This document shows positions 34,017 through 57,658 of a stretch of DNA of 57,661 bases, in pieces; the first letter of the stretch is position 1, and the number at the start of each line of letters is the position of its first letter. Under the pieces are notes generated by a model. The model was not told the origin of the DNA. It made no database searches and saw only the letters and a list, made by a program, of their open reading frames with translations. Made by a program: the position numbers and the translations under genes. The stretch is taken from NCBI GenBank assembly GCA_963736115.1, contig CAVTNR010000013.1, forward strand, positions 1 to 57,661, read 5' to 3'. This stretch comes from an uncultured bacterium. GTDB taxonomy: Bacteria > Zhuqueibacterota > QNDG01 > DTFT01.

Positions 34017-34097
34017 TTCGATTCTCCTTCGGATTGAATGATTCTTTCAGTTGATTGATGCCGGTCACGCGGGAACCTTCGACCGTATCACGATGTT

Positions 34098-34310
34098 TTA
34101 TGCCGCGTTTGTACGGGGCGCGTCCACCAGCCGGAGCGCGCCGGGAAAGCATTTTAGAACGCATTTGCCGCATCCCGTGCACAGTTCGGAATTGACTTCG
34201 GGCGCGGCGTATCCCTTCTGGGTCAGTGCGCCGGTCGGGCACACCCTCACCGCCGGGCAGGGATGGTTCTGGGGACAGAAGTTTTTCCTCACTTCGAGTG
34301 TTTTATTCAT
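34098..34310 (-). CDS. Small 4Fe-4S binding protein
   Basis: CPQNHPCPAVRVCP and CTGCGKCVLKC. Confidence 0.88.
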   Translation of the reverse strand: MNKTLEVRKNFCPQNHPCPAVRVCPTGALTQKGYAAPEVNSELCTGCGKCVLKCFPGALRLVDAPRTNAA

Positions 34311-43706: not shown

Positions 43707-43856
43707 GCGCGCCGGGGCCGCCCGCCTTTCATGCCGGCGCGGCCCCGATCAGGCACACTCCGGGGACTGCAGATTAAACGAAGAACATCCGGCCGCTCTC
43801 AAGCGGCTGCCCGTCCAGCCTGTTTATCTCCGGATCTTAATAGGATGAGGTACCCA

Positions 43857-46130
43857 ATGAAAAAGTCCGCATGGATTCTCCTGGGATTGCTGACCGCCCC
43901 GGCCGTCTTCTCACAGTCCATTATCGCGGATCACACCTGCATCGACATTTTTCAAATTCCGGTCACGGCAATACAGGCGGCCAAAGAGCAGCTCCACATC
44001 GGCTACGGCCATACGTCGCACGGCAGTCAAATCATAGGCGGCATGGCCGGGCTGGTGGATTTCATGAACGCCAAGGGGGTCGAACACGATCTGTACGACT
44101 TCAACGGTGACGGCTCCGGCGGCGCACTGCATCTCACCTCCGGGGACGGGGCCGACCAACTCGAGAACGACGCCGGGTATTATCCCGCCTGGGTGAATGA
44201 AACGCGCGCTTTCCTCGGCGCTCCGGACGCCGAGGGCCGGGGCTCCTCCCGCCCGCAGTTCAATGTCATCATGTGGGCGTGGTGCGGCCAGCTGTCCGGT
44301 TACTCTACTTCGGATGTGTACAACCAGTATCTGAACGACATGAACCAGCTGGAGCAGGACTACCCGGCTGTGACTTTCGTCTACATGACCGGACACGCGG
44401 ACGGGTCCGGACTCGAGGGCGATCTGCACCGGAACAACCAGACCATCCGGAATTACTGCATCGGGAACGGCAAGGTACTGTTTGATTTCTACGACATCGA
44501 GTGTTATAACCCGGACGGGAATTATTTTGGAGACCGGCATGTCGACGACGCCTGCAGTTACGACGGCGGCAACTGGGCGCAGGCGTGGCAGAACGCGCAC
44601 ACCGAGGGCGTCGACTGGTATTATTGCGACGCGGCGCACACGGAACCCGTGAACGGGAACATGAAGGCCTATGCGGTCTGGTGGCTGTGGGCGCGCCTGG
44701 CCGGTTGGGCCGGATCCGAGCCGGATCCGAGCCCGCCTTCGATTCCGGCCGGGCTCAGGGCCGAATCGGTCAGCGAAACGAGAGTCGACTTGTCCTGGAA
44801 TCCCTCCGTGGATCCCGAATCAGGCGTAGGCCGCTACCGTGTATTCAGGAATGACGTTTTTATCGCGTCGACCTCGTCCACATCCCATTCCGACGTGACG
44901 TGCGTTCCGGGTGAGACCTACCTCTACCGGGTGAGCGCGGTCAATGGCGCGGGCACGGAATCGGAGCGCAGCAGCCCGGCGTCCGTGACCCTGCCTTCGG
45001 ACGATCAGCCGCCCTCGATCCCGGAAGGGCTTTCCGCGGATCCCGTGTCGTCGACGCAGATCGACCTGTCCTGGGATCCGTCTTCGGACAATTCAACCGT
45101 CAGCGGGTACCGTGTGTACCGCAACGGCGAATTCACGGCCGAGACGCCCGAAACCGGATTCTCGGACACGGGCCTGACTCCTTTGACCTCCTATCAATAC
45201 CGGGTCTCGGCTCTGGACGCGGCCGGTAACGAGTCCGGGCTTTCAGATCCCGCAACCGCGACGACTTTGGATCCGAATCTGACGCCCGAAACGGTCCGGC
45301 TGGAAAACACGGATGAGGTGGATGACACGTTCATCTTCGCGGATGATCCGTCCTCCAATTTCGGCGGGGAGCAGTACTTCAGCGACATCGACCGGTTCCT
45401 GGTCCGGTTCAGCCTGCCTGCCGGATTGAACGGCAAGCGCATCCTGTCCGCGGACCTGGGTTTCTATGTCTGGAACCAGTCGGATTACCATTCGGACGAA
45501 TTTCTGGACGTTTTCGCGCTCACGCGGTCCTGGTCGGAATACGGGGCCACCTGGCTCAACGCCTCGGACGGAGTCACATGGCTGACCCCGGGCGGAGACG
45601 CGGACCTTTACGCGCCGGTCGCCCGCATCCCGCATCTGCCCGATGCCTCGGACTGGGACCATACCTTTTATCCGGCCGCGGACATCACGAGCCTGGTCCA
45701 GGGATGGGTGGACGGTCTCACGCCCAATCACGGCCTGCTGGTGATGAACAGCGGCCAAACCGGAATCGGACTCAAGGCCAGCGAGTACGGAGAAGGAAGC
45801 CGGCCCTTTCTGGAAATCGTCTATGCGGACAAGACCACACCGGGAGCGGTTGAATCCCGTGCTGCGGACGGCTTCCGGCTGATCGGCAACTGGCCCAATC
45901 CCTTTAATCCGGGAACGGTCATCCGGTTCGGTCTGGATGAGGCCGCGGACGTGGAAATCCGGGTGTTCGACATGCAGGGCCGTGAGGTGAGGGCCCTGCG
46001 GCCCGGCCGCCTCGGCAGGGGCGAACACCGCGTGCATTTTTCCGCGGATGGCCTGGCCTCAGGCGTGTATCTCTATTCGGTTCAGACCGGCGGACAGAAG
46101 CGGTTGGGGAAAATGCTGCTGGCGCGTTGA
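43857..46130 (+). CDS. Secreted multidomain protein: SGNH-like N-domain, 2x FN3, DNRLRE (CBM96-like) and T9SS/FlgD-type CTD
   Basis: Signal peptide; GHTSHG...DAAH; FN3 repeats (LSWNPS...YRVSAV); DDTFI...TRSWSE..ATW...DITSLVQGW; NWPNPFNP...LASGVYLY. Confidence 0.85.
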   Translation: MKKSAWILLGLLTAPAVFSQSIIADHTCIDIFQIPVTAIQAAKEQLHIGYGHTSHGSQIIGGMAGLVDFMNAKGVEHDLYDFNGDGSGGALHLTSGDGADQLENDAGYYPAWVNETRAFLGAPDAEGRGSSRPQFNVIMWAWCGQLSGYSTSDVYNQYLNDMNQLEQDYPAVTFVYMTGHADGSGLEGDLHRNNQTIRNYCIGNGKVLFDFYDIECYNPDGNYFGDRHVDDACSYDGGNWAQAWQNAHTEGVDWYYCDAAHTEPVNGNMKAYAVWWLWARLAGWAGSEPDPSPPSIPAGLRAESVSETRVDLSWNPSVDPESGVGRYRVFRNDVFIASTSSTSHSDVTCVPGETYLYRVSAVNGAGTESERSSPASVTLPSDDQPPSIPEGLSADPVSSTQIDLSWDPSSDNSTVSGYRVYRNGEFTAETPETGFSDTGLTPLTSYQYRVSALDAAGNESGLSDPATATTLDPNLTPETVRLENTDEVDDTFIFADDPSSNFGGEQYFSDIDRFLVRFSLPAGLNGKRILSADLGFYVWNQSDYHSDEFLDVFALTRSWSEYGATWLNASDGVTWLTPGGDADLYAPVARIPHLPDASDWDHTFYPAADITSLVQGWVDGLTPNHGLLVMNSGQTGIGLKASEYGEGSRPFLEIVYADKTTPGAVESRAADGFRLIGNWPNPFNPGTVIRFGLDEAADVEIRVFDMQGREVRALRPGRLGRGEHRVHFSADGLASGVYLYSVQTGGQKRLGKMLLAR

Positions 46131-46239
46131 GCCAGGCCGGCCGAATCGCATCCGTCGGGCGCGTCCGGTTTTTACCAGCGGACTGATGCGGCTCTACGAC
46201 GGGTCCGGATCATCAGAAAATCAATGAAGGAAGTGTCTC

Positions 46240-47787
46240 ATGAACCCTTTCCTGAATTATGGCCGCCTCACGGCCCGCAGCTGCGCCGCTGTTGCCGTGA
46301 CGGTTCTCTGCCTGCTCCCCGGTTTCCGCGGGCTCATGGCCCAGGCGGACAACGAAACGATCGTGTACACGGACAGCCTCCGGCAGGTGATACGCGGATT
46401 TGGAGCGGCGAACATAGTGGGCTGGCGGCCCGACATGACAGCGGATCAGGCGGAAAAAGCCTTTGGAACGGAGGATGGACAGATCGGATTCTCCATTCTG
46501 CGGCTCAAGGTCCCCAGCGTTTCCACCCGGCAGGAATTCAGCGCCCAGGTTGCGACCGCGAAGCGCGCTCAGTCGTACGGCGCCATTGTCATCGCGTCGC
46601 CCTGGTCGCCCCCGGCCGGGATGAAAACCAACAGCAACATCGTGGGCGGTTCGCTCGAGGAAAGCGCGTACCCGGACTTCGCGGATCACCTGAACGCCTT
46701 CGCCGATTACATGGCCGACAATGACGCGCCGTTGTACGCGATTTCCGTTCAGAACGAGCCGGACATCACGGTCAATTACGAATCCTGCGACTGGAACGCC
46801 TCCCAGATGCTGAAGTTCGTGAAAGAGCAGGGCGCTTCCATCGGTACGCGTCTCATCGTTCCGGAATCCTTCAATTTCAACAAGACCATTTCGAACGCCA
46901 TCCTGAACGATCCGGACGCCGCGGCCCACGTGGACATCATCGGCGGCCATTTGTACGGCGGCGGGCTCGAGGCGTATCCCCTGGCGGAGCGCATGGGCAA
47001 GGAATTGTGGATGACGGAGTATCTCAATACCGATACGACCTGGAACGCGGTTCTGTCCACGGGCCGGCAGATGCACGACTGCATGAATGCCGGCATGAAC
47101 GCCTATATCTGGTGGTACATCGTCCGGTACTACGGTCCCATACACGAAAGCGGAAATGTGACGAAACGCGGGTATGTCATGTCCCAGTACGCCCGGTTCA
47201 TCCGCCCCGGATTCTTCAGGGTGCGCACGGCCTCGGGACGGGGTCCGGCCCTGTCGATCACCGCCTACAAGGGCGGATCCAGGCTGGTCCTTGTGGTGGT
47301 CAATACGCGCACCACTGAAACCACCCGGACGTTCAGGATCGAAGGCGCCCCGGCCGGAACCTCGGTTTTCACTCCGTATGTCACATCCGAAACCAGGAAT
47401 TGCGTGCAGGAGAGCGGCCTGACCGTCGTGGACGGGGTTTTCACCGCGACGCTCGCGCCGTCGAGTGTCACCACGTTCCATGCGGACATCCTTTCCGGCC
47501 TGGACGGATCCTCCGTTCTTCCCGGAGAACTGCGGCTCAATCCGAATTTTCCGAATCCCTTCAATCCGCGGACGGCCGTCACCGTTGAACTCCCCCGCGC
47601 CTGCGCCGCCTCATTGAAAGTCTACAACCTGCTCGGCGTCGAGATCGCGACCCTGCTGGACGGTAGACACAGCGCGGGCCGGTACGATCTGGACTTCGAC
47701 GCGTCCGGCCTGGCGAGCGGCACCTACGTGCTCCGGCTTGAAGCGGACGGCGCGGTCCAGACGCGGAAAATGACCCTGCTGCGTTGA
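46240..47787 (+). CDS. GH30_8-like glucuronoxylanase with T9SS/FlgD-type CTD
   Basis: QVIRGFG, ASPWSPP, QNEPD (acid/base), WMTEY (nucleophile), WWYIVRYYG; NFPNPFNP tail. Confidence 0.9.
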   Translation: MNPFLNYGRLTARSCAAVAVTVLCLLPGFRGLMAQADNETIVYTDSLRQVIRGFGAANIVGWRPDMTADQAEKAFGTEDGQIGFSILRLKVPSVSTRQEFSAQVATAKRAQSYGAIVIASPWSPPAGMKTNSNIVGGSLEESAYPDFADHLNAFADYMADNDAPLYAISVQNEPDITVNYESCDWNASQMLKFVKEQGASIGTRLIVPESFNFNKTISNAILNDPDAAAHVDIIGGHLYGGGLEAYPLAERMGKELWMTEYLNTDTTWNAVLSTGRQMHDCMNAGMNAYIWWYIVRYYGPIHESGNVTKRGYVMSQYARFIRPGFFRVRTASGRGPALSITAYKGGSRLVLVVVNTRTTETTRTFRIEGAPAGTSVFTPYVTSETRNCVQESGLTVVDGVFTATLAPSSVTTFHADILSGLDGSSVLPGELRLNPNFPNPFNPRTAVTVELPRACAASLKVYNLLGVEIATLLDGRHSAGRYDLDFDASGLASGTYVLRLEADGAVQTRKMTLLR

Positions 47788-47872
47788 AAGGCATCGCGTC
47801 CGTTCTCGAGAGCCGAATGCGGGTTCCAGTCCAGAGCGTTTTGTTCCGTCCCACTCATCCAGGAGGAAAGAA

Positions 47873-48574
47873 ATGAAACACCCGACTGTCCGGATGTTCC
47901 GGATCCTGAGCGGATCCACGCTGGCGTTGTTCATCGCCGGCTGCTGCTCCATGAACCAGCTCCAGGGGCAGAAATTCGACGAGCGGACCGCGTCGTCGCA
48001 TCTCCAGCCGCCGCCGCCGGCCCAGGTTTTCTCGAACGGATGGACGGACACGGGTTCCGGCAATCCCATCGAAGCGGTGCTTCGCATCGGAACCGGCATC
48101 GCCCGTGAGATCGAAATGGGCAAGACGCGCGACAAGATGGACAGCGCCATGGGCATGGTGGACATTCCGGCCATTCTGGAGGAGGAGACGCTCGAACGGG
48201 GTGCGAAAACATTTGGTTTCCGGACCGTCGGGGAGACCCGCGACGCGGATTTCACGTTCGACATCGAAATCGAGAAATACGGCATTGAGGCAAAGACCTG
48301 GACATCGGGCGTGGATTTCAAGATGGAAGTCAAAATCGCCCTGATCGAGAACGCGAAAAACCGTCAGGTGTGGCGGCGCTGTTTCGATGAGGAAATCGCG
48401 GTTTCCAGCGACCTGTTCGGTCTTCCCGGAGCCGCGAACAACGTCTTCACCATGGTCTCACTCTCGCGCCTCACGGCTGACGAGATCGCGGACGGCCTGG
48501 AAAAACTGGCTGTCCGCACCTCTGACCGCATTGTCCGAGGGCTGCAGGAAGATTTTTCGAATAAAAACCGGTAA
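47873..48574 (+). CDS. Hypothetical lipoprotein
   Basis: AGGAGG RBS; FIAGC lipobox; 233 aa. Confidence 0.8.
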   Translation: MKHPTVRMFRILSGSTLALFIAGCCSMNQLQGQKFDERTASSHLQPPPPAQVFSNGWTDTGSGNPIEAVLRIGTGIAREIEMGKTRDKMDSAMGMVDIPAILEEETLERGAKTFGFRTVGETRDADFTFDIEIEKYGIEAKTWTSGVDFKMEVKIALIENAKNRQVWRRCFDEEIAVSSDLFGLPGAANNVFTMVSLSRLTADEIADGLEKLAVRTSDRIVRGLQEDFSNKNR

Positions 48575-48643
48575 CCGGGACCGGACCGCCCGGAGAACGC
48601 CCGGGCGCGATCCGCGGACGGGAAACAACGGATAGAGCCGGAA

Positions 48644-49225
48644 ATGCGCGATCGAATCGAACTTTCTCCTGCCGTCCGAAGGACGGTTTCCGCTGTCGGC
48701 CGGCGCTGGCTGGCCCAGGCACTCACGCTTTTCATGGCCGGAATTCCGGCCATCCAGGCGGGTGACGGCATCGAGTCCGCGGGCGACGCACTACGGCTCG
48801 TCCTGCCGGCGACCGCGGCCGGCGCGGCCCTCCTGCACCGGGACCAGCGGGGCGCGGTTCAATTCTTCGAAGCCGCGGCCATGACGGGTGTAATCACGGA
48901 AGCGCTCAAGGTAATCGTCGATGAGAAGCGGCCGAACGGCAACCGGTACAGCTTCCCCTCGGGTCACACATCGATCTCCTTCTGTTCGGCTGAATTTTTG
49001 CGGAAGCGGTACGGGTGGCGGTATGGGGCTCCGGCTTACGCGGCCGCGGTTTTTGTCGGTTATTCCCGGGTCCAGGCCCGCAAGCACTATATTCACGACG
49101 TCGCCGCCGGCGCCGCGATCGGAACCGCGTTGAGCGCGTGGCGCACCCGGTCCGGCGGGGCATGCCGGGTCGAGGCCTTTTCGGGAAACGGATGCGCCGG
49201 CATTCGGCTCCGCTGGGCGGGATGA
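48644..49225 (+). CDS. PAP2 family phosphatase
   Basis: K-x6-RP, SFPSGHT and SR-x5-H motifs. Confidence 0.9.
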   Translation: MRDRIELSPAVRRTVSAVGRRWLAQALTLFMAGIPAIQAGDGIESAGDALRLVLPATAAGAALLHRDQRGAVQFFEAAAMTGVITEALKVIVDEKRPNGNRYSFPSGHTSISFCSAEFLRKRYGWRYGAPAYAAAVFVGYSRVQARKHYIHDVAAGAAIGTALSAWRTRSGGACRVEAFSGNGCAGIRLRWAG

Positions 49226-49373
49226 CCGCCGCAACGGTTTCGCGTCGTCCGCTGCCCGGCGCGGAGCGCTCCCGCGGTTTTGCCGGAAAAGCCGTCCGGC
49301 CCGGCGAAAGATTCCGGGGCTGGACGGTGTTCCATGAACGAGAGGCCATCATCCCCATTCAGGCGGAAAAAAC

Positions 49374-50714
49374 ATGAAACGAAAACGGTTGATTTGGGCG
49401 GGCTCAATCGCGGGGCTCGCCGTGCTGGCGGTTCTGGCCGCGGTGATCGTCCGGAGCTGCGGACGGAAAGGCCAGAACGGCCGGTTCCAGACCGCGGAGG
49501 TCACGCGGGGCGACATCGAGAACACGGTGTCCAGCACCGGGACCATTGAGTCGACGGTCACCATCGACGTGGGCACCCAGGTGTCGGGCATCATCTCCCG
49601 GATCTACGCGGATTTCAACGACCCCGTGCAGCGGGGTCAGGTGCTGGCCCTGCTGGACACCGTTCCGCTGTACACCCAGGTCCTGGACGCGGAGGCGCGG
49701 CTCGAGCAGGACAATGCCCAGCTCGAGCAGGCCCGAATGAACTACGACCGGAACACGCCGCTCTATGAAAAACGGCTGATCTCGCAGGAGGAATACCTCC
49801 CTTTCAAGTTCAACCTGCAGGTGCAGCAGGCGGTCGTGAAGTCGTCCCGTGCCGCGCTCACCCGGGCGAGGCAGAACCTCGATTACGCCGTCATCCGGTC
49901 GCCCATACGCGGCACGGTCATTCAGCGCGCCGTCGAGGTCGGGCAAACGGTCGCCGCCAGCTTCAACACGCCGACCCTGTTTGTCATCGCGCAGGATCTA
50001 TCCAAGATGGAAATCAACGCCCTGGTGGACGAGAGCGACATCGGCCTGATCAAGACCGGACAGAATGCCCGGTTCACCGTGGAGGCGTATTCGGACCGGA
50101 CGTTCGAGGGCCGCGTGCGCCAGGTGCGGCTGCAGCCCACCACGGTGCAGAACGTCGTCAACTACACCGTGATCGTGGACGTGGAGAACCGGGAAAAGCT
50201 TCTGCTCCCGGGAATGACCGCCACGCTTGATTTTGTGGTGGAGGAGCGCCGTCAGGTTCTGCTCGTCCCCTCGGCCGCGCTGAAATTTCAGCCGCCCGAA
50301 GATGTGCTGAAGGCGGCTTTTTCGGAGATGCGCAGGCGCCCGGAGGGCCCGCGAGACTCGACGCAGGGATCTCCGGGTTTTCCGGCCGGCGGACCGCTTC
50401 CGGGTTCGCGTCCAGGTTTCGGATCCAGGACCGGCGCGGGTTCCGGGTTCCCGGCGGGCGCGGCCGGCGGCTTCGCCATGCCCGCGGACCGGGGCGCCGT
50501 CTGGGTACTGGACGGGCAGGGCCGTCCGAGAATGGAATTCGTCCAGACCGGCGCCACTGACGGAAAGAACACCGAGATCGTCCGGTCGCGCGGCCTCGAG
50601 GAAGGCGTGGAGGTCATCACCGGACTGACCGAGAAGGCCAATCCGGCGGCGACTCCGGCCGCGGCCGGTTCGCGCCAGCGTGGATTCGGCGGCGGGCCGC
50701 CGAGGATGTTCTGA
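49374..50714 (+). CDS. MacA-like periplasmic adaptor
   Basis: VGTQVSG, IRSPIRG, GQTVAASFNTPTLF, VDESDIG, LLPGMTA. Confidence 0.92.
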   Translation: MKRKRLIWAGSIAGLAVLAVLAAVIVRSCGRKGQNGRFQTAEVTRGDIENTVSSTGTIESTVTIDVGTQVSGIISRIYADFNDPVQRGQVLALLDTVPLYTQVLDAEARLEQDNAQLEQARMNYDRNTPLYEKRLISQEEYLPFKFNLQVQQAVVKSSRAALTRARQNLDYAVIRSPIRGTVIQRAVEVGQTVAASFNTPTLFVIAQDLSKMEINALVDESDIGLIKTGQNARFTVEAYSDRTFEGRVRQVRLQPTTVQNVVNYTVIVDVENREKLLLPGMTATLDFVVEERRQVLLVPSAALKFQPPEDVLKAAFSEMRRRPEGPRDSTQGSPGFPAGGPLPGSRPGFGSRTGAGSGFPAGAAGGFAMPADRGAVWVLDGQGRPRMEFVQTGATDGKNTEIVRSRGLEEGVEVITGLTEKANPAATPAAAGSRQRGFGGGPPRMF

Positions 50715-50730
50715 TGGGACCGGCCGCGTC

Positions 50731-51483
50731 ATGAAACCCATCATCGAAACTCGGAAACTCGAGAAGACCTATGTCATGGGAGACGTCCGCGTGAACGCGC
50801 TCCGCGGCGTGGATCTGACCGTACAGCCGGGTGAAATGGCGGCCATTATCGGCGCCTCCGGTTCCGGCAAGTCGACGCTGATGAACCTGCTGGGCTGTCT
50901 CGACACGCCCACTTCCGGGGAATACCTGCTCGAGGGGCACCGGGTGAGCCGGCTGGCCGCGGACGCGTACGCGGACATCCGGAACGAGAAGATCGGATTC
51001 GTTTTTCAGGGATTCAATCTGCTGGCGCGCACGACGGCGCTCGAAAATGTCGAACTGCCGCTCCTCTACGACCGCGGGAAGCGGATTCCGGATCCGCTGG
51101 GTGAAGCCGAGCGGGCCCTGCGGCGCGTGGGTCTCGGCGACCGGCTCGACCACGAGCCCAACCGGCTGTCGGGCGGCGAACAGCAGCGCGTCGCCATCGC
51201 GCGCGCCCTGGTCAACCGGCCCAGCCTCCTGCTGGCGGACGAGCCCACCGGCAATCTCGATACGCGGACATCCATGGAGATCATGGCCCTGTTTCAGGAG
51301 CTGAACGACCAGGGGCTCACCGTGGTGCTGGTCACCCACGAGACGGACATCGCGAACTGCGCGAAGCGTATCATCGAGATGCGCGACGGCCAGGTGCGGT
51401 CCGACCGTCCGGTGAAGGACAGAATCGAGGCGCCGCGGCCCTCTGCCGGCGCGAACCGGGGAAAGGCGGGCCGGACGGCATGA
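50731..51483 (+). CDS. MacB/LolD-type ABC ATPase
   Basis: [34 protein letters not shown]. Confidence 0.95.
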
Positions 51484-52703
51484 ACCTGCAGTTCCGCAAT
51501 CTCGTCAAGGTTTCCATGAAGGGCATTCTAAAGAACCGGATGCGCAGTTTTCTGACCTCGCTCGGCATCATCATCGGCGTGGCCGCGGTCATTGTCATGG
51601 TGGGCGTGGGCCAGGGCGCCTCCCAGCGGATACAGAATTCGATCGCCTCGATGGGGACGAACCTGCTGATCGTGTTCCCCGGAGCGAGCCAGGCGGGGGG
51701 AGTCAACCGGGGCGCGGGCAGCTGGAACCGGTTCACGATGGACGACGCGGACCGCATCCGGGAACAGTGCAAGCTGATATCGGCCGTGTCTCCCATCGTC
51801 CGATCCGGCGACCAGATCATCGGCGGGGGCAACAACTGGAACACCTCGATTTACGGCGTCACGCCCGACTATTTCACCATCCGGACCTGGACCTGCGAGA
51901 AGGGCGAGCTGTTCACGGACAGGGACGTGGCGTCGAGCCGCAAGGTCGCGGTGCTCGGCAAGACAACGGCCGAGACTCTTTTCCCGGGTCAGAATCCCGT
52001 GGGGGAGCGCATCCGCATCCGGAACACGCCGTTCATCGTGACCGGCGTCCTGAAGCGGAAGGGGCAGACGGCCATGGGGCCGGACCAGGACGACGTCGTT
52101 CTCGCGCCGGCCACCACGGTGCTCTACCGTCTCAAGGGAGGGCGGTATGTGGACATGCTGAACGCCAGCGCGGCCTCAACGGAACAGATGGCCGAGGCGC
52201 AGGAGGAACTGCGCGCCGTCCTGCGGGCGGCCCACCGCCTCCGGGCCGGGGACGACGACGACTTCACCATCCGCAGCCAGGCGGAGATCACGGAAATGGC
52301 GACGTCCACGACGAAAACCATGACCCTTCTGCTCGGCGCGATCGCGGCTGTATCCCTGCTGGTGGGGGGCATCGGCATCATGAACATCATGCTGGTTTCC
52401 GTGACCGAGCGGACGCGGGAGATCGGCATCCGCATGTCCGTGGGCGCCCGGGGCCGGGACGTGATGATGCAGTTTCTGACCGAAGCGGTCGTCCTGAGCC
52501 TGACCGGGGGATTGCTCGGGATTCTCCTCGCCTTTCTCGTCTCCCTGGTCCTGAATCGGTTCACGTCCATGCAGACCGTCATACGGCCGGACATCGTCCT
52601 GCTCGCCTTCAGTTTCGCCGGAGCGGTTGGGGTTTTCTTCGGCCTGCACCCGGCGCGGAAAGCGGCGGGGCTGAATCCGATCGAGGCGCTGAGATATGAG
52701 TGA
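51480..52703 (+). CDS. MacB-type ABC permease
   Basis: RSFLTSLGIIIGV; GGIGIMNIMLVSVTERTREIGIR; PIEALRYE. Confidence 0.95.
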   Translation: MNLQFRNLVKVSMKGILKNRMRSFLTSLGIIIGVAAVIVMVGVGQGASQRIQNSIASMGTNLLIVFPGASQAGGVNRGAGSWNRFTMDDADRIREQCKLISAVSPIVRSGDQIIGGGNNWNTSIYGVTPDYFTIRTWTCEKGELFTDRDVASSRKVAVLGKTTAETLFPGQNPVGERIRIRNTPFIVTGVLKRKGQTAMGPDQDDVVLAPATTVLYRLKGGRYVDMLNASAASTEQMAEAQEELRAVLRAAHRLRAGDDDDFTIRSQAEITEMATSTTKTMTLLLGAIAAVSLLVGGIGIMNIMLVSVTERTREIGIRMSVGARGRDVMMQFLTEAVVLSLTGGLLGILLAFLVSLVLNRFTSMQTVIRPDIVLLAFSFAGAVGVFFGLHPARKAAGLNPIEALRYE

Positions 52704-52912: not shown

Positions 52913-55411
52913 TCAGAAATCTCCGCCCGTGTCATACACCCCTTCCTGCGCCTCGCCCTCGCCGTTTCCGTTTCGTTCCCCGTTCTCCCTCTGCCGGTCC
53001 CGCTTGTAGTTGTTGATATTGTACGTCAGGGTGAGCATGTAAATCGGCGCTTCTCGCGTCATGCGGCCATGCGTCGAGAAGCCCGGCGCGTCCGTCTTGA
53101 ATTCGAATTTGCCCGTCCGGAAGGCGTCCCGGATTTGAAGCGTGGCGGACAGGGACCGGTTCAGGAATTCCTGGCGGAGGCTGAATCCGCTGTCGAAATG
53201 ACCTTCACGGCTGCCCTGGGAGGACACGGAGGGGCTGCTGTAGCGCAGGTTGGCCTGCAGACGGGTCGTGGGCGTGATCCGATACGTGTTGTTGAACCGG
53301 ACGTTCCAGTTGAAACTTTCCTTCGAGAACGGCTCGCCCAGGAGTTCGCCTTCGACCCGGTACTGGTAGAGACTGCCCATGAGATTGACGTTCCACGGCT
53401 TGAGCGGGTTCACGTTCAGCATGATCTCGCTGCCCAGTGAATAGTCCCGGCCCACGTTGTCCATGGTATGCAGGGTGATGCGCGGCGCGTAGAGGGACTG
53501 GATGCGCTCGATCTTGTTGTGCGTCACGCGGTAGTATGCCTCGACGGAAAAGAGGCTCTGGCCCGCGGTCGACTGGAAGGTCGTCTCGTATGAATCGATG
53601 AACTCGGGCTCGAGGTCCGGGTTCCCGCGGCGGACGTTGTAGGCGTCCATCCAGGTCTCGAAAGGCTCGAGGTCCCAGTCGCGGGGACGCTGGACGCGGC
53701 GCGTGTAGCTCGTCATCAACTGCCGGCCCTCGACGAATGTATACGAGAAGTGCGCCGTCGGGAACACGTCCCAACGGTCGATGGTGAAATTGTCCCCCGT
53801 GTCCTCGAGTTCGATGTCGCGGCCTGTGTATTCGCCCCGGACGCCGGCCTGCAGCCCCAGTTTTCCGTACGCGTTGGAATAGGTGGAATACAGGGAATGA
53901 ATGGTGTGCGACGCGTCAATGGTGTGGCTGTAGGGCTGCTGGAACACGTAGGTGCCGGCGGCCGGGTCGTAGATGAAGCGTTCCGTTTTTTCCTCGCCGG
54001 ACGAAATGCGGGTTTGGGCTCCAGCCTGTATCTTCTCCTCGGCCCGGAGGGGCAGGATGTAGTCGAGCTTCAGCCGCAGGTCCTTGGACGGTCCGGATTC
54101 CGTCGCCCGCTGGGCCTCGGCGATGCCGCCGGCTGCGTCGAAGAGGCGGTTGGTGTCCTCGTCGTCGCCGTCATGGCCGCCCAAAATGGCCTCGGCCTGG
54201 AGTTCATGCCCGGTTTTCGCGAAATCGTGCTTGTAGCCGAGGTTCAGGGAATAGAAGTCGCCGCCGTGCGAGTTCTCGTCCAGGCTCCGGTAGAGTGCAT
54301 GGATGCCGCCCGGTTCGCTCCACTCGTCGTAACGGTTTTGCGAATTCCCCTCGGAGGAATGGCGGCCGACGCGCAATCCGACGCTCAGCAGATCCCGGGC
54401 CGTGGCCGAGAAATCCATGCCGACGCGTATCCCGAAATTGCCGCCGCCCCGGTCGTTGTCGCCCCGTGAGATCCGGAACAGGGTCGTGTCGCCGAGCAAT
54501 GTGCGCTGTTCGATCCTGGACGTGCCGATCCTGGACCGCTGGTTGTAATCGATCCCGGCGTACACGGTCGTCCGCGACCCCCTGCGGCTCAGGAGCATGT
54601 CCCCGCCCGACCGGCCGGAGATGTCGTTGAGGCCCAGGTTGGCGTTGAATATGCCGGAGACGCCGCCCTGTTTCTCCTTTTTCAGCTTCAGATTGATGAT
54701 GCCGGCCGTGCCGTCCGGATCGTATTTCGCCGAAGGGTTCGTGATGATTTCGATCTGTTCGATGATGCTGGCCGGCGTCTGCTGGAGCGCGGTGTTCGCG
54801 TCGAGCGGCGTGGGCCGGTTGTCGATGAGCACGGTGAAACTCGAGCTGCCCCGGAGCTGGACGTTGTTTTCCTCGTCCACGGTGATCGAGGGTACGTTCT
54901 CGAGCACGTCCACGGCCGTTCCCGCGAGAGCCGTCTGCTGCTGGCCGACATTAATCACGCGGCGGTCGATCTTGTACTCGAATTCGGGACGGTCGGCCTG
55001 GATGTCCACGCCCTGGCCGGGCAGAACGGCGGGCTTGAGCCGTATGGTGCCGACGTCATGCGAGACACTTCCCCGTCTGGGCGAGACGTCCCCGATGGTT
55101 TGGGCGTGGTATCCCATGTAATTGACCGTCATGCGGAACTGGCCGGGAAAGAGGTCCTTCAGTTCAAAGGTGCCGTCCGGTGCCGTGACGATGCCTGTGA
55201 CCTGCCGTCCGTCCCTTTTGGCGAACAGAACGATCGTGGCATACTCGAGCGGTTTTCCCGTGGACGCATCGAGCACCTTGCCCGTGATGGTGACTCTGGG
55301 TGCGGCCTGGGCTCCAGGGGGCCTTCCGGCCGCCGGTCCGTCCTGAGCCTGGGCGGTCACGAACAGAGAAAAACCAATCAGAATGAACATTTTCCTGACC
55401 TGACGAATCAT
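52913..55411 (-). CDS. TonB-dependent receptor / outer membrane beta-barrel protein with N-terminal CarboxypepD_reg-like domain
   Basis: ITGKVLD...PLEYATI; plug DVLENVPSITVD...IEIITNPSAKYDPDGTAGIIN; GNPDLEPE; aromatic C-terminal strands. Confidence 0.9.
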   Translation of the reverse strand: MIRQVRKMFILIGFSLFVTAQAQDGPAAGRPPGAQAAPRVTITGKVLDASTGKPLEYATIVLFAKRDGRQVTGIVTAPDGTFELKDLFPGQFRMTVNYMGYHAQTIGDVSPRRGSVSHDVGTIRLKPAVLPGQGVDIQADRPEFEYKIDRRVINVGQQQTALAGTAVDVLENVPSITVDEENNVQLRGSSSFTVLIDNRPTPLDANTALQQTPASIIEQIEIITNPSAKYDPDGTAGIINLKLKKEKQGGVSGIFNANLGLNDISGRSGGDMLLSRRGSRTTVYAGIDYNQRSRIGTSRIEQRTLLGDTTLFRISRGDNDRGGGNFGIRVGMDFSATARDLLSVGLRVGRHSSEGNSQNRYDEWSEPGGIHALYRSLDENSHGGDFYSLNLGYKHDFAKTGHELQAEAILGGHDGDDEDTNRLFDAAGGIAEAQRATESGPSKDLRLKLDYILPLRAEEKIQAGAQTRISSGEEKTERFIYDPAAGTYVFQQPYSHTIDASHTIHSLYSTYSNAYGKLGLQAGVRGEYTGRDIELEDTGDNFTIDRWDVFPTAHFSYTFVEGRQLMTSYTRRVQRPRDWDLEPFETWMDAYNVRRGNPDLEPEFIDSYETTFQSTAGQSLFSVEAYYRVTHNKIERIQSLYAPRITLHTMDNVGRDYSLGSEIMLNVNPLKPWNVNLMGSLYQYRVEGELLGEPFSKESFNWNVRFNNTYRITPTTRLQANLRYSSPSVSSQGSREGHFDSGFSLRQEFLNRSLSATLQIRDAFRTGKFEFKTDAPGFSTHGRMTREAPIYMLTLTYNINNYKRDRQRENGERNGNGEGEAQEGVYDTGGDF

Positions 55412-55571
55412 ACGTGTACTCCTGTGAGTGATGGTGCTTTGCGATGTCTATTGTTTCATACAAACGACATTAAATATAACACCAAACCCGGTAAAAAGTT
55501 TTGTTATTTTTGGCTTTGGTGACAGGATAAATCGAAGGGTGACAACTTATTACAGGGATTCGGATTTTTCC

Positions 55572-55600
55572 TTGATTTTCGTATTACATTGTATTACCTT
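55572..55600 (+). promoter_or_regulatory. sigma70 promoter overlapped by a GTATTAC-N3-GTATTAC candidate operator
   Basis: TTGATT (55572-77)-N17-TACCTT (55595-600); repeat at 55581-55597. Confidence 0.55.
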
Positions 55601-55641
55601 ATCCTGCTATCAGTCTGTTTTAGAGAAATCCGGAGTATCCA

Positions 55642-55965
55642 ATGGCTGGACAAAAGGCCAAATGTGATGTGATTACTTTCAAGGTGGATGCGGCGCTCCG
55701 CGAGGCCATGAAAGGCGTTCCGAACCGTTCCGAGTTCATACGCTCAGCCATTCTGTCCGCATCCGGGAATATATGCCCCCTTTGCAAGGGACAGGGTCTT
55801 CTCTCTCCGGACCAGCTCGAACACTGGCGGTCCTTCAGCCGCGGGCATCATGTCACAGAATGCGCGGATTGCCATGCCCTGCATCTGGTCTGCTCAGGGG
55901 AGTTTGGCGCGTCTACGCACTCGGAACGGCGGGAAGATCCGGGCGGGAATGGAAGCCGGAAATGA
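55642..55965 (+). CDS. Ribbon-helix-helix (CopG-like) regulator with a Cys/His-rich C-terminal domain
   Basis: ITFKVD strand and NRSEFIRSAI helix; CPLC...HH...CADCH..H..C; GGAG RBS; stop overlaps the znuA start. Confidence 0.8.
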   Translation: MAGQKAKCDVITFKVDAALREAMKGVPNRSEFIRSAILSASGNICPLCKGQGLLSPDQLEHWRSFSRGHHVTECADCHALHLVCSGEFGASTHSERREDPGGNGSRK

Positions 55966-56909
55966 AGACTGTTTCAGGCATGCCTCACGGATTTCATTTC
56001 ACGCGGATCTTCTCCACGGCCATGGTTTGCCTCCTTCTGATTGTGCGGTTCCCCTGTCAAGGAGCGGAACGGCCGTTGCGGCTTTTCACCGGAATCCCGC
56101 CGATCGCCGGCCTGGCTGAGAAAATCGGCGGCGATCGGGTGGAGGTGGAAACCCTGCTCAGGCCGGGTGACAATCCGCATCTCTTCGAACCCAGACCGCG
56201 CCAGGCCGCGGCGCTCGGCCGGTCCGATTTGTTTCTCTCCTGCGGGTTCCCTTTCGAGGAGAAGCTGGCCCGGAATCTTAAAGGACGGTCTTCGGGCCCG
56301 GTCGTGGCCGACCTTGGCGCGGACCTGCTGACGGCGCCGGAACCGGAAAGCGGTGTGTCTTCCCGTCACCGGGATCATGACCATGATCATGGGGGAACGG
56401 ATCCGCATGTCTGGCTGTCGCCGGCCCTGCTCCGCGTTCTCAGCCTCAATCTGTTTGATGCGTTGAAAGCGCAGGATCCCGCGTCCGGATCCTTTTTTCA
56501 GGAACGCCTGAACCGCCTGCTTGCTGAAATCGACTCTCTCGACCGCGGCATCGGACAATCGCTCGCTCCCTTTCGGGGCCGGTCTTTTCTCGCGGCCCAT
56601 CCCTCCTTCGGCCGGTTCGCCGAGGCTTACGGCCTGAAGCAGATGTCCGTGGAATCGGAGGGGAAGAGCCCGTCGGCTCGGGGCCTCGCGGCCATTGTCC
56701 GCGAGGCGAGAAAGGAGCGCGTCTCGATCGTGTTCATCGAGCCGCAATTTGATCCGTCCGGAGCGGAAGCCGTGGCGAAAGCGATCGGCGGAACCGTCGC
56801 GGCCGTGGATCCCCTGGGCCGGGACGCATTGGCGACGATTCGTGTTTTTTCGGATTTGCTGGTCCGGTCTTTCCGCGATGCGGACGCAGCCGGGGGACGG
56901 AAGCCGTGA
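55962..56909 (+). CDS. znuA: Zn/Mn ABC transporter substrate-binding protein
   Basis: NPHLFEP, His-rich loop HRDHDHDH, DPHVWLSP, AHPSFG, VDPL. Confidence 0.9.
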   Translation: MKTVSGMPHGFHFTRIFSTAMVCLLLIVRFPCQGAERPLRLFTGIPPIAGLAEKIGGDRVEVETLLRPGDNPHLFEPRPRQAAALGRSDLFLSCGFPFEEKLARNLKGRSSGPVVADLGADLLTAPEPESGVSSRHRDHDHDHGGTDPHVWLSPALLRVLSLNLFDALKAQDPASGSFFQERLNRLLAEIDSLDRGIGQSLAPFRGRSFLAAHPSFGRFAEAYGLKQMSVESEGKSPSARGLAAIVREARKERVSIVFIEPQFDPSGAEAVAKAIGGTVAAVDPLGRDALATIRVFSDLLVRSFRDADAAGGRKP

Positions 56910-57658
56910 AACAACCGGATGCGATCCGCCTGAAGAGCGTGACCTGCAGTCTCGGCGGGAGCGTTGTTCTCGCGAACGTCTCGTTCTCCGTGAGCCGGGG
57001 CGAATTCACCTACATGATCGGCCCGAACGGAGGCGGCAAGACCACCTTGCTCCGGCTTCTTCTCGGTCTGGAAAAGCCGGATTCCGGCCGGATTTCGGTT
57101 CTGGGCCTGACCCCGCCGGCCGCCAACCGGCGCATCGGATACCTTCCCCAGCATCAGTTTTACGATCCCCAGTTTCCCATCACGGCGCTGGAAGCGGTTC
57201 AGACCGGCCTGTCCTTCGCGCCTTTTGCTTCCGGCCGTTTTCGGGAAAAGGCGGCATCGGCTCTCGATGAAATGGGGCTCGGGGACGAAGCCGCAAGGCC
57301 TTACGCCGTTCTATCGGGCGGCCAGCGCCAGCGCGTGCTCATCGCCAGGGCCTTGGTCGGGGATCCCGAACTGCTTCTGCTGGACGAGCCCACCGCCAAC
57401 GTCGACCCCGCCGTTGAAGAGGCCCTGTTCGACCGGCTGACCCGGCTTCGCCGGAAGCTGACCATTCTCATGGTGACACACGACACGGGCGTCGTGCCGG
57501 TCGGTGTGGAGCGGGTGATCTGCGTCAACCGGGCCGTGGCCGTTCACCCGACCCGGCGGCTGACGGGCCGTGTGCTCCAGGAACTGTACCACCAGAACCT
57601 GAACCGCGTCAGTCATGACCGCGTCATCAAAAGGCCATCCGGGGGAAAACATGGCTGA
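56906..57658 (+). CDS. znuC: Zn/Mn ABC transporter ATPase
   Basis: GPNGGGKTT, IGYLPQ, LSGGQRQRVLIARAL, VTHD, VICVN; an overlapping ATG at 57651 probably starts the permease. Confidence 0.9.
   Translation: MKQPDAIRLKSVTCSLGGSVVLANVSFSVSRGEFTYMIGPNGGGKTTLLRLLLGLEKPDSGRISVLGLTPPAANRRIGYLPQHQFYDPQFPITALEAVQTGLSFAPFASGRFREKAASALDEMGLGDEAARPYAVLSGGQRQRVLIARALVGDPELLLLDEPTANVDPAVEEALFDRLTRLRRKLTILMVTHDTGVVPVGVERVICVNRAVAVHPTRRLTGRVLQELYHQNLNRVSHDRVIKRPSGGKHG

Follow-up and report, generated by a model that had tools for sequence, protein, structure and literature searches.

What controls the zinc-uptake genes that close contig CAVTNR010000013.1 (assembly GCA_963736115.1), from an uncultured bacterium of the Zhuqueibacterota? 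On this stretch of 57,661 nucleotides (nt), called the window here, znuA and znuC lie at the very end, directly behind a small gene for a 107-residue protein that combines a ribbon-helix-helix (RHH) N-terminus with a tail rich in cysteine and histidine. A first-pass annotation had proposed that this protein is a metal-responsive autorepressor, and the comparative evidence collected here supports that proposal at the level of sequence. We regard the protein as a likely local zinc-sensing autorepressor of the zinc-uptake operon. That the regulator binds the repeated box ahead of its own gene and controls the znu genes appears very probable from the comparison of loci, and that zinc is the signal appears probable.

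The candidate regulator gene and its linkage to znu genes

The regulator is encoded at 55642-55965 on the forward strand, and sequence and open reading frame (ORF) list agree on its length, its RHH N-terminus and its Cys/His tail. A Shine-Dalgarno element, GGAG (55632-55635, +), stands 6 nt ahead of the ATG. The TGA of the candidate repressor gene (55963-55965) overlaps the ATG of znuA (55962-55964) in an ATGA, and the ORF coordinates thus bear out the reported overlap of the regulator with znuA, followed by znuC. The znuA gene (55962-56909, +; Pfam ZnuA, 8.3e-57) encodes a zinc-type substrate-binding protein with a His/Asp-rich loop, HRDHDHDHGGTDPH. Its stop codon overlaps the start of znuC (56906-57658, +; ABC_tran, 3.8e-32), an ABC ATPase gene, in a GTGA. 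The permease gene znuB starts with an ATG at 57651 and is truncated by the contig end (57651-57661, +). At the znuB position of a close relative (L003), a 278-residue AztB/ZnuB-like product is encoded, with the same 8-nt overlap as in the window.

Homologs of the regulator form a sizeable family. We found 421 clusters at 90% identity and 260 representatives at 50% identity with E ≤0.001, 81 of these with E ≤1e-10, and the ESM Atlas added 30 further clusters without names. At least 506 genomic loci encoding homologs were confirmed. Linkage was counted in the best 80 of these at least 506 loci, and operator counts cover the window plus these 80 (81 regions). Relatives are annotated as 'CopG family transcriptional regulator', 'metal-responsive CopG/Arc/MetJ family transcriptional regulator' or 'hypothetical protein'. 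Taxon labels in the record titles include Planctomycetota (in many variants), Spirochaetota, Hydrogenedentota, Thermodesulfobacteriota, Nitrospiraceae, Zixibacteria, Lentisphaerae/Victivallales, Verrucomicrobiota, Ignavibacteriales, Gemmatimonadales, Fibrobacteraceae, Bacillota, Sumerlaeota, TA06 and others. Metagenome-assembled genomes (MAGs) and uncultured assemblies make up nearly all of the 160 entries listed (L002-L081 and L130-L209), and this near-exclusive occurrence in MAGs may explain why the family was overlooked. One MAG carrying the regulator gene (L137) is labelled Victivallis vadensis, a species with a cultured type strain.

The first-pass annotation had named linkage of homologs to znu genes as a check, and 74 of the 80 loci are linked. 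In 61 loci the regulator is followed on the same strand by znuA-znuC-znuB, in 4 by znuA-znuC, in 2 by znuA only (where the contigs end) and in 4 (L015, L016, L045 and L054) by znuC-znuB, without a znuA homolog between. A znu gene is thus found directly downstream on the same strand in 71/80 loci, and the first downstream gene is znuA in 67/80. In three further loci the znu genes are convergent (L021, L080) or upstream (L023). Outer neighbours are not conserved, since the commonest family accounts for 5 of 74 upstream and 5 of 66 downstream positions; the conserved unit is therefore exactly the regulator plus znuACB. The commonest downstream neighbour, with these 5 of 66 loci, is a gene of the histone-deacetylase family, which may be lineage-specific. 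This enzyme family is zinc-dependent.

The same synteny bears on the idea that some small, unrelated RHH protein, for example an antitoxin or a plasmid copy-control or partition protein, came to lie beside znu by chance. Many of the top structural neighbours of the RHH part are indeed antitoxins and CopG/ParG-like proteins, all at Z ≤3.1. However, the gene lacks a toxin-like partner, the neighbouring genes include no recurrent toxin family, and the znuACB order extends across loci labelled as many phyla, with the box (see below) following znuA when genes are reordered. An antitoxin or plasmid role is contradicted by this synteny, and we consider chance adjacency hardly credible.

In a sample of 167 genomes from the phylum of the window, the regulator was present in four, all of the genus of the window. 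This restriction suggests that the cassette arrived there by horizontal transfer. In the phylum sample of another carrier (G002), 11 of 151 genomes gave a strong regulator match.

The proposed operator and the promoter

The proposed operator consists of two palindromic heptads, GTATTAC, at 55581-55587 and 55591-55597 (+), with centres 10 bp apart and 44 nt ahead of the start codon. The first-pass description of a GTATTAC-ATT-GTATTAC repeat with a 10-bp period and nearly palindromic units was thus accurate for 55581-55597. In the window, the box pattern GTAWTACNNNGTAWTAH has a single exact match; with up to two mismatches three matches were obtained, namely the box on both strands and one weak site, compared with 0.22 expected. 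The weak box-like site, GTATCACGATGTTTTAT, has two mismatches and lies at 34085-34101. Within the 3.34-Mb genome of the window (87% complete), the operator is the only strong site for a position weight matrix (PWM) of the box. Three weak PWM sites (on C3, C21 and C26; scores 19-21) were considered as a possible regulon and treated as chance, being AT-rich, intergenic and without visible zinc-related neighbours.

To follow the box through the family, the 200 nt upstream of each regulator gene were scanned with the pattern GTAWTACNNNGTAWTAM, which has 14 positions. The consensus GTAWTAC-N3-GTAWTAM matched at 12 or more of the 14 positions in 74/81 upstream regions and at 13 or more in 69/81, while shuffled upstream regions reached 12 or more in 19 of 1620 cases. 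Upstream conservation of GTAWTAC-N3-GTAWTAC had been set as a further check, and in these 74 regions it is both present and highly specific. At 15 bits or more, the PWM found 76 sites within 260 nt upstream of a regulator gene versus 4 elsewhere in 849,888 nt of locus DNA; as the PWM was built from the same sites, the informative figure is the low count elsewhere. Three of these four other sites lie just upstream of znuA in L021, L080 and L023, the loci with altered gene order. The box is also kept in loci that have the regulator without znu genes nearby (L020, L022, L060 and L081). Its presence at znuA in the reordered loci and at the regulator in loci devoid of znu indicates that the box goes with the regulator and its target rather than with any one lineage.

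Searches of five genomes of 3.6-8.3 Mb each gave one site at the promoter of the RHH gene and znu, which was exact in four genomes and had one mismatch in the fifth. Other one-mismatch sites in these genomes occurred at about the control rate. Hence the regulon is essentially the operon itself.

The structure of the box suits the proposed regulator. Each heptad is its own reverse complement except for the central W, which fits a two-fold symmetric RHH dimer, and with centres 10 bp apart two dimers would share one face of the helix. Two dimers on one helix face are known from Arc and its relatives. The box has the same orientation as the gene in 73 of 74 regions because the C at its end can give way to A or T. 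At the promoters of L065 and L077, and also of L051 and L073, two adjacent boxes (four heptads) are present, which suggests higher-order binding there.

The box had also been placed between a predicted -35 and a predicted -10 element. Its overlap with the promoter stands, while the exact placement has to be revised, as the box covers the spacer together with the -10 element and, in the window, TTGATT (55572-55577, +), just upstream of the first heptad, is the one, weak, -35-like hexamer. In 17 of the 74 box-carrying regions, TTGACA (5/6 or 6/6 matches) is found 16-18 nt before the TAWTAM of the second heptad. From this spacing it appears that the second heptad also serves as the -10 element, and this points to repression by occlusion of the promoter. 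A riboswitch as an alternative means of control finds no support, because the Rfam scan of the window at gathering thresholds and the tRNA scan gave no match to an RNA element. A search for sequencing runs listed six DNA runs (word shares 0.05-0.08) and no RNA run.

Domains, putative metal ligands and the probable zinc signal

The putative DNA-binding domain comprises about residues 8-43 (55663-55770, +), with the strand segment ITFKV and helices at 17-23 and 29-42, as judged from an AlphaFold2 (AF2) model and structural neighbours. No Pfam or NCBIfam model matched the window protein at threshold, and RHH_1 gave no match at E up to 1. The aCcr1 RHH model scored 5.1e-05 (23 bits, below its cut-off of 60), and sub-threshold matches to RHH_1 at E ≤0.05 were obtained for 67 of 106 family members (best 1e-4). 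In the AF2 model, the predicted local distance difference test (pLDDT) score is 92-93 over residues 11-30, and the N-terminal strand is not formed in the monomer. The turn before helix 2 reads G25-V-P-N28-R-S30, of which N28, R29 and S30 are each kept in 101-106 of 106 members. When residues 6-45 were used in a VIA structure scan, RHH proteins made up the majority of the 50 neighbours listed, all at Z ≤3.1; PutA, Arc, AmrZ, NikR, omega (2bnw/1irq), CopA/CopG-like proteins and many antitoxins were among them. Low Z values are expected here because the RHH part has only about 40 residues. A Foldseek search of the whole model against the PDB gave no match at E ≤0.001. As modelled, the N-terminal part behaves as a ribbon-helix-helix domain. 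A complex of two copies and four Zn was predicted with a score of 0.41 against a mark of 0.42 (controls 0.00), which speaks neither for nor against dimerisation. One natural protein of 185 residues (P0121) contains two complete RHH-plus-Cys/His units in tandem and would be a single-chain pseudo-dimer, an arrangement that fits a dimer as the functional unit.

The Cys/His domain spans residues 44-85 (55771-55896, +) and comprises a knuckle, C45-P-L-C48-K-G-Q-G, a helix with H61 and W62, and a hairpin with H69, C74, C77, H81 and C84, according to conservation and AF2. The tail had been described as CPLC-x21-HH-x3-CADCH-x2-H-x2-C. While the Cys/His tail itself was correctly recognised, the spacing from CPLC to HH is 20 residues, not 21, and H61/W62 had been missed. 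Across the 106 family members, C48 is invariant (106), followed by C45 and C74 (105 each), C77 (104), H69 (103), C84 (102), and H61 and W62 (100 each); H81 is found in 83 and H78 in 79. A second set, of 79 genome-derived domains, has twelve invariant columns: C45, P46, C48, G50, G52, H61, W62, F65, H69, C74, C77 and C84.

When residues 44-85 were modelled alone, AF2 gave a pLDDT of 87 with knuckle, helix and beta-hairpin. Beyond this domain the protein ends in a disordered tail. Sub-threshold matches were to DnaJ_CXXCXGXG (90/106 members), the Lar zinc ribbon (73/106) and Anti-TRAP (22/106), and in a sequence search of the PDB with the family profile Anti-TRAP was the sole, weak match (E 0.0075). 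The first knuckle fits CxxCxGxG, and the second is CxxCH without GxG. Foldseek found no match for the C-terminal domain at E ≤0.001 and the VIA-wide scan no chain at Z ≥2, and with a domain of 50 residues neither novelty nor identity of the fold follows from this. A Cys4 zinc centre would account for the two CxxC pairs and leave H61, H69 and C84 as three further near-invariant ligands. H69 opens the first strand of the hairpin and C84 closes the second, so that they are expected to be cross-strand neighbours, with H61 on the preceding helix; this geometry would follow from the secondary structure of the AF2 model.

For the nature of the metal we turned to the transporter. Among the 15 best solved relatives of the window ZnuA (E ≤3.4e-19) are the named zinc binders Synechocystis ZnuA (1pq4, the best at 1e-41), YcdH, AdcA and the ZnuA proteins of E. 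coli and Salmonella, and none is named for Mn. Entry 5w56, titled 'periplasmic solute binding protein', which we take to be an AztC-type binding protein, is also in this group. Mn binders scored 8e-18 or weaker. In the alignment of the window ZnuA with 1pq4, the histidines of the PH, DPH and HPS motifs, presumably the metal ligands, coincide, and both proteins have a His-rich loop. Of 68 linked ZnuAs, 58, 67 and 66, respectively, retain these three histidines, and at least two loop histidines are present in 57/68. These sequence features mark the linked ZnuA proteins as zinc-type.

These findings bear on the possibility that the same Cys/His domain senses another metal (Mn, Fe, Co, Ni or Cd) or acts as a redox switch in which thiol oxidation releases zinc. 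Mn or Fe can be the cargo of cluster A-I binding proteins, Hsp33 and RsrA are examples of Zn-Cys4 redox switches, and Hsp33 chains occurred among the non-significant Foldseek matches. Yet the linked ZnuAs possess the three histidines at ligand positions together with the His-rich loop, their best solved relatives are named as zinc binders, not as Mn binders, and genes for redox or Mn/Fe functions are not recurrent neighbours of the cassette. Sensing of a different metal or of redox state is therefore, in our view, quite improbable.

With zinc as the probable signal, the system could work as follows. The RHH domain would dimerise, and each dimer would read one GTAWTAC heptad through its two-stranded ribbon, by means of the conserved T12 and K14 together with N28-R29-S30 at the N-terminus of helix 2. 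Two dimers on two heptads, one helical turn apart, would cover the spacer and the -10 element of the regulator-znuA-znuC-znuB promoter. The Cys4 site (C45, C48, C74 and C77) is probably structural, while H61, H69 and C84, joined by H81/H78 in most members, may form an exchangeable Zn(II) sensing site. When zinc is sufficient, the holo-protein would bind and shut the operon off; when zinc is scarce, the site would empty, binding or dimer-dimer cooperativity would be lost and the transporter would be made. Derepression would also yield more repressor, resulting in negative feedback. Of this picture, the comparison shows the linkage of the genes, the conservation and specificity of the box, the conservation of the ligands and the zinc-type features of the transporter, whereas DNA binding by the protein, repression as opposed to activation, zinc as the signal and the division of the ligands between two sites are inferred from it.

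The obvious competitor for control of znu is Zur. The genome of the window has a single Fur-family gene, far off on C24, with its best NCBIfam matches to PerR models, all below cut-off, and the Fur-family genes of three carriers are most like PerR or Fur. Each of the four genomes of the genus has one Fur-family gene, and 27 non-carriers of the same order have one (8 genomes) or at least two (19), a comparison within a single lineage and without statistical weight. Among other carrier genomes, 8 of 55 (2/5 plus 6/50; completeness of these genomes not given) have no Fur-family match, so Zur cannot explain the regulation in this subset. In the 151-genome sample, a Fur-family gene is absent from 4 of 11 strong carriers versus 14 of 140 other genomes (p = 0.028). 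No znuA, znuC or znuB gene was found within about 1.5 kb of 35 Fur-family loci in relatives, a result that is uninformative. The anti-correlation with zur that had been set as a check was hence not demonstrated: most carriers have a Fur-family gene, and 8/55 lack one.

Several observations weigh against a zinc-sensing autorepressor. At least one Fur-family gene is present in 47/55 other carriers and at least two in 22/50, so Zur could coexist with the regulator. The difference in the 151-genome sample shrinks to 3/10 (p = 0.088) when the seed genome is left out, gives no signal with weak matches and comes from relatives that are not independent. The box is absent from the entire fetched locus in 4/80 cases, and in 6/80 no znu gene occurs within the fetched flank; in L010, L020, L022, L052 and L081, which lack znu, the downstream ORFs have no Pfam family except for a TPR protein in L010. 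A simple sigma-70 scan of 55380-55680 found no promoter in the window. H78 and H81 are replaceable across the family, and the split of the ligands into two sites is a working hypothesis drawn from AF2 secondary structure, not coordinates. Finally, a paralogous subfamily (L210-L216, in 7 genomes of the 151-genome phylum sample; E 1e-17 to 1e-20) keeps the RHH domain and the CPxCxGxG knuckle but lacks H61, W62 and H69 as well as any znu gene within about 4 kb.

Taken together, some of these points favour the main rival explanation, in which the RHH protein, as an autoregulator, binds the box and sets the level of operon expression independently of metal, its zinc ribbon serves structure only, and any response to zinc comes from Zur, another factor or control at the level of the transporter. 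Cys4 zinc ribbons are usually structural, Fur-family genes are common in carriers with no clear anti-correlation, and the related subfamily, which has neither the His residues nor linked znu genes, retains the knuckle and a similar box. However, H61, H69 and C84 are kept in 100-103 of 106 members, which is more than one Cys4 site needs, and the carriers devoid of Fur-family genes speak against it as well. The box is the only conserved element at the promoters, the cassette moves as a self-contained unit, and in the phylum of the window the regulator is confined to one genus (4/167 genomes). We judge a purely structural role of the Cys/His domain rather unlikely and retain zinc sensing by this domain as the preferred explanation.

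Beyond the individual operon, we lean towards regarding the family as a new structural class: an RHH repressor of about 90-107 residues that senses Zn(II) through its own zinc-ribbon-like domain, encoded by the first gene of a self-contained, horizontally mobile four-gene cassette with a 17-bp operator, and doing the job of Zur locally in many mostly uncultured lineages. If this is true, the RHH plus Cys/His family adds a new sensor architecture, accounts for the control of high-affinity zinc import in carriers without a Fur-family gene, and means that zinc uptake can spread across phyla as a module that brings its own switch. The small size of the protein and its 17-bp operator would also make it an attractive zinc-responsive part for reporters.

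Neighbouring genes, paralogs and known regulators

Upstream of the regulator, a gene for a TonB-dependent receptor (52913-55411, -; OMP_b-brl_3, Plug and CarboxypepD_reg in Pfam) is divergently oriented, an arrangement kept in L002-L004. The receptor gene is the upstream neighbour in 3 of 74 loci, and the 230-bp intergenic region is common only to the clade of the window (the window and L002-L004). These four regions have 85% identity throughout and are too alike to resolve a second operator for the receptor gene. A lone heptad-like TTATTAC is present at 55547-55553, 34 bp upstream of the box. The receptor is no more than a possible member of the regulon. Further upstream, at 43731-52703, the window encodes two secreted proteins with type IX secretion system sorting tails (Por_Secre_tail; fn3/CBM96 and GH30-like) and a MacAB-type efflux set (HlyD, ABC ATPase and MacB/FtsX); no zinc-related genes are found among those of this region.

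In two members of the paralogous subfamily a box-like site was found about 45 nt upstream (GTATTACATTGTCATTC in L211 and GTATTACCATGTAATGC in L212). In L211 a MerC-like gene (2.3e-15) comes next, and both L211 and L212 have a multihaem cytochrome/TPR gene on the upstream side. Paralogs with a similar box, and without the His ligands or znu, indicate that the scaffold is not always tied to zinc, and the position of a member of this sister subfamily beside a MerC-like gene hints that the scaffold is reused for other metals.

The first-pass annotation had treated the family as one not known to be characterised. In agreement with this, we found no Pfam or NCBIfam model, no solved structure and no paper in the open-access literature, and open-access papers and preprints gave no description of an RHH regulator of znu. 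To our knowledge, no RHH zinc sensor is known. A 'CopG family' locus with znuA from Paracoccus is listed in an excerpted table of differentially expressed genes and is not tied to this family (PMC5387054). In the excerpts of the 2024 review Bacterial Metallostasis, 'ribbon-helix-helix' occurs once, in the section on NikR (PMC11672702).

NikR is a parallel in architecture. Like the window protein, it has an RHH domain fused to a C-terminal metal-binding part, and when activated by its metal it represses the genes of an ABC transporter for uptake, nikABCDE; repression of this kind is proposed for the window protein. NikR (2bj1_A) is a structural neighbour of residues 6-45, with a root-mean-square deviation of 1.8 over 40 residues and Z 2.7. 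The operator here consists of two adjacent heptads, unlike that of NikR, which has two widely spaced half-sites, and the linkage is to the zinc-type znuACB genes (74/80 loci), not to nickel uptake or nickel enzymes. In the section of the review devoted to it, the sensor of NikR is described as a Ni-binding, ACT-like tetramerisation domain with some 80-90 residues (PMC11672702, section 3.2.8). In contrast, the C-terminal part of the window protein is a Cys/His knuckle-helix-hairpin of about 45 residues without detectable similarity. The C-terminal family of NikR was absent both from the Pfam matches of the window protein at E up to 1 and from the 25 commonest families of the 106 members, and these profile scans bear out the earlier statement that an ACT-like domain is missing.

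Zur resembles the proposed regulator in logic. It has a structural Cys4 site, made of two CxxC pairs, in addition to His/Cys sensing ligands. According to excerpts of two papers, it represses znuABC when loaded with zinc, from a box that overlaps the promoter (PMC6103462, PMC11077047). Its fold, however, is unrelated; the window protein is smaller and has no match to the FUR domain (PF01475), its regulon is apparently a single operon instead of a global one, and the regulator is the first gene of the operon that it would control.

With regard to DNA recognition, Arc, MetJ, CopG and omega are the appropriate comparison, as they are small RHH proteins that occupy neighbouring short repeats as dimers of dimers and regulate their own genes, as proposed here. 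None of them has a metal-binding domain, and Arc, CopG and omega have no effector; that of MetJ is S-adenosylmethionine. What sets the heptads here apart from the sites of these proteins is that each is a palindrome by itself, with 10 bp from centre to centre; omega also uses heptad repeats. The first knuckle, C45-P-L-C48-K-G50-Q-G52, is like the CxxCxGxG finger of the DnaJ type and of Anti-TRAP, whereas the second, C74-A-D-C77-H, lacks GxG; in addition, there are extra invariant His and Trp residues and a terminal Cys, and the scores stay below the family threshold.

Zinc-dependent repressors of zinc uptake genes outside the Fur family are represented by AdcR (MarR family) and by Loz1 of fission yeast, with which the window protein shares only the logic, folds and lineages being unrelated. 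In an excerpted account of Loz1, the zinc fingers themselves are the sensor, as we propose here for the Cys/His domain (PMC11761706). Among the metal-responsive repressors of uptake operons, we would place the RHH plus Cys/His proteins as a new structural family.

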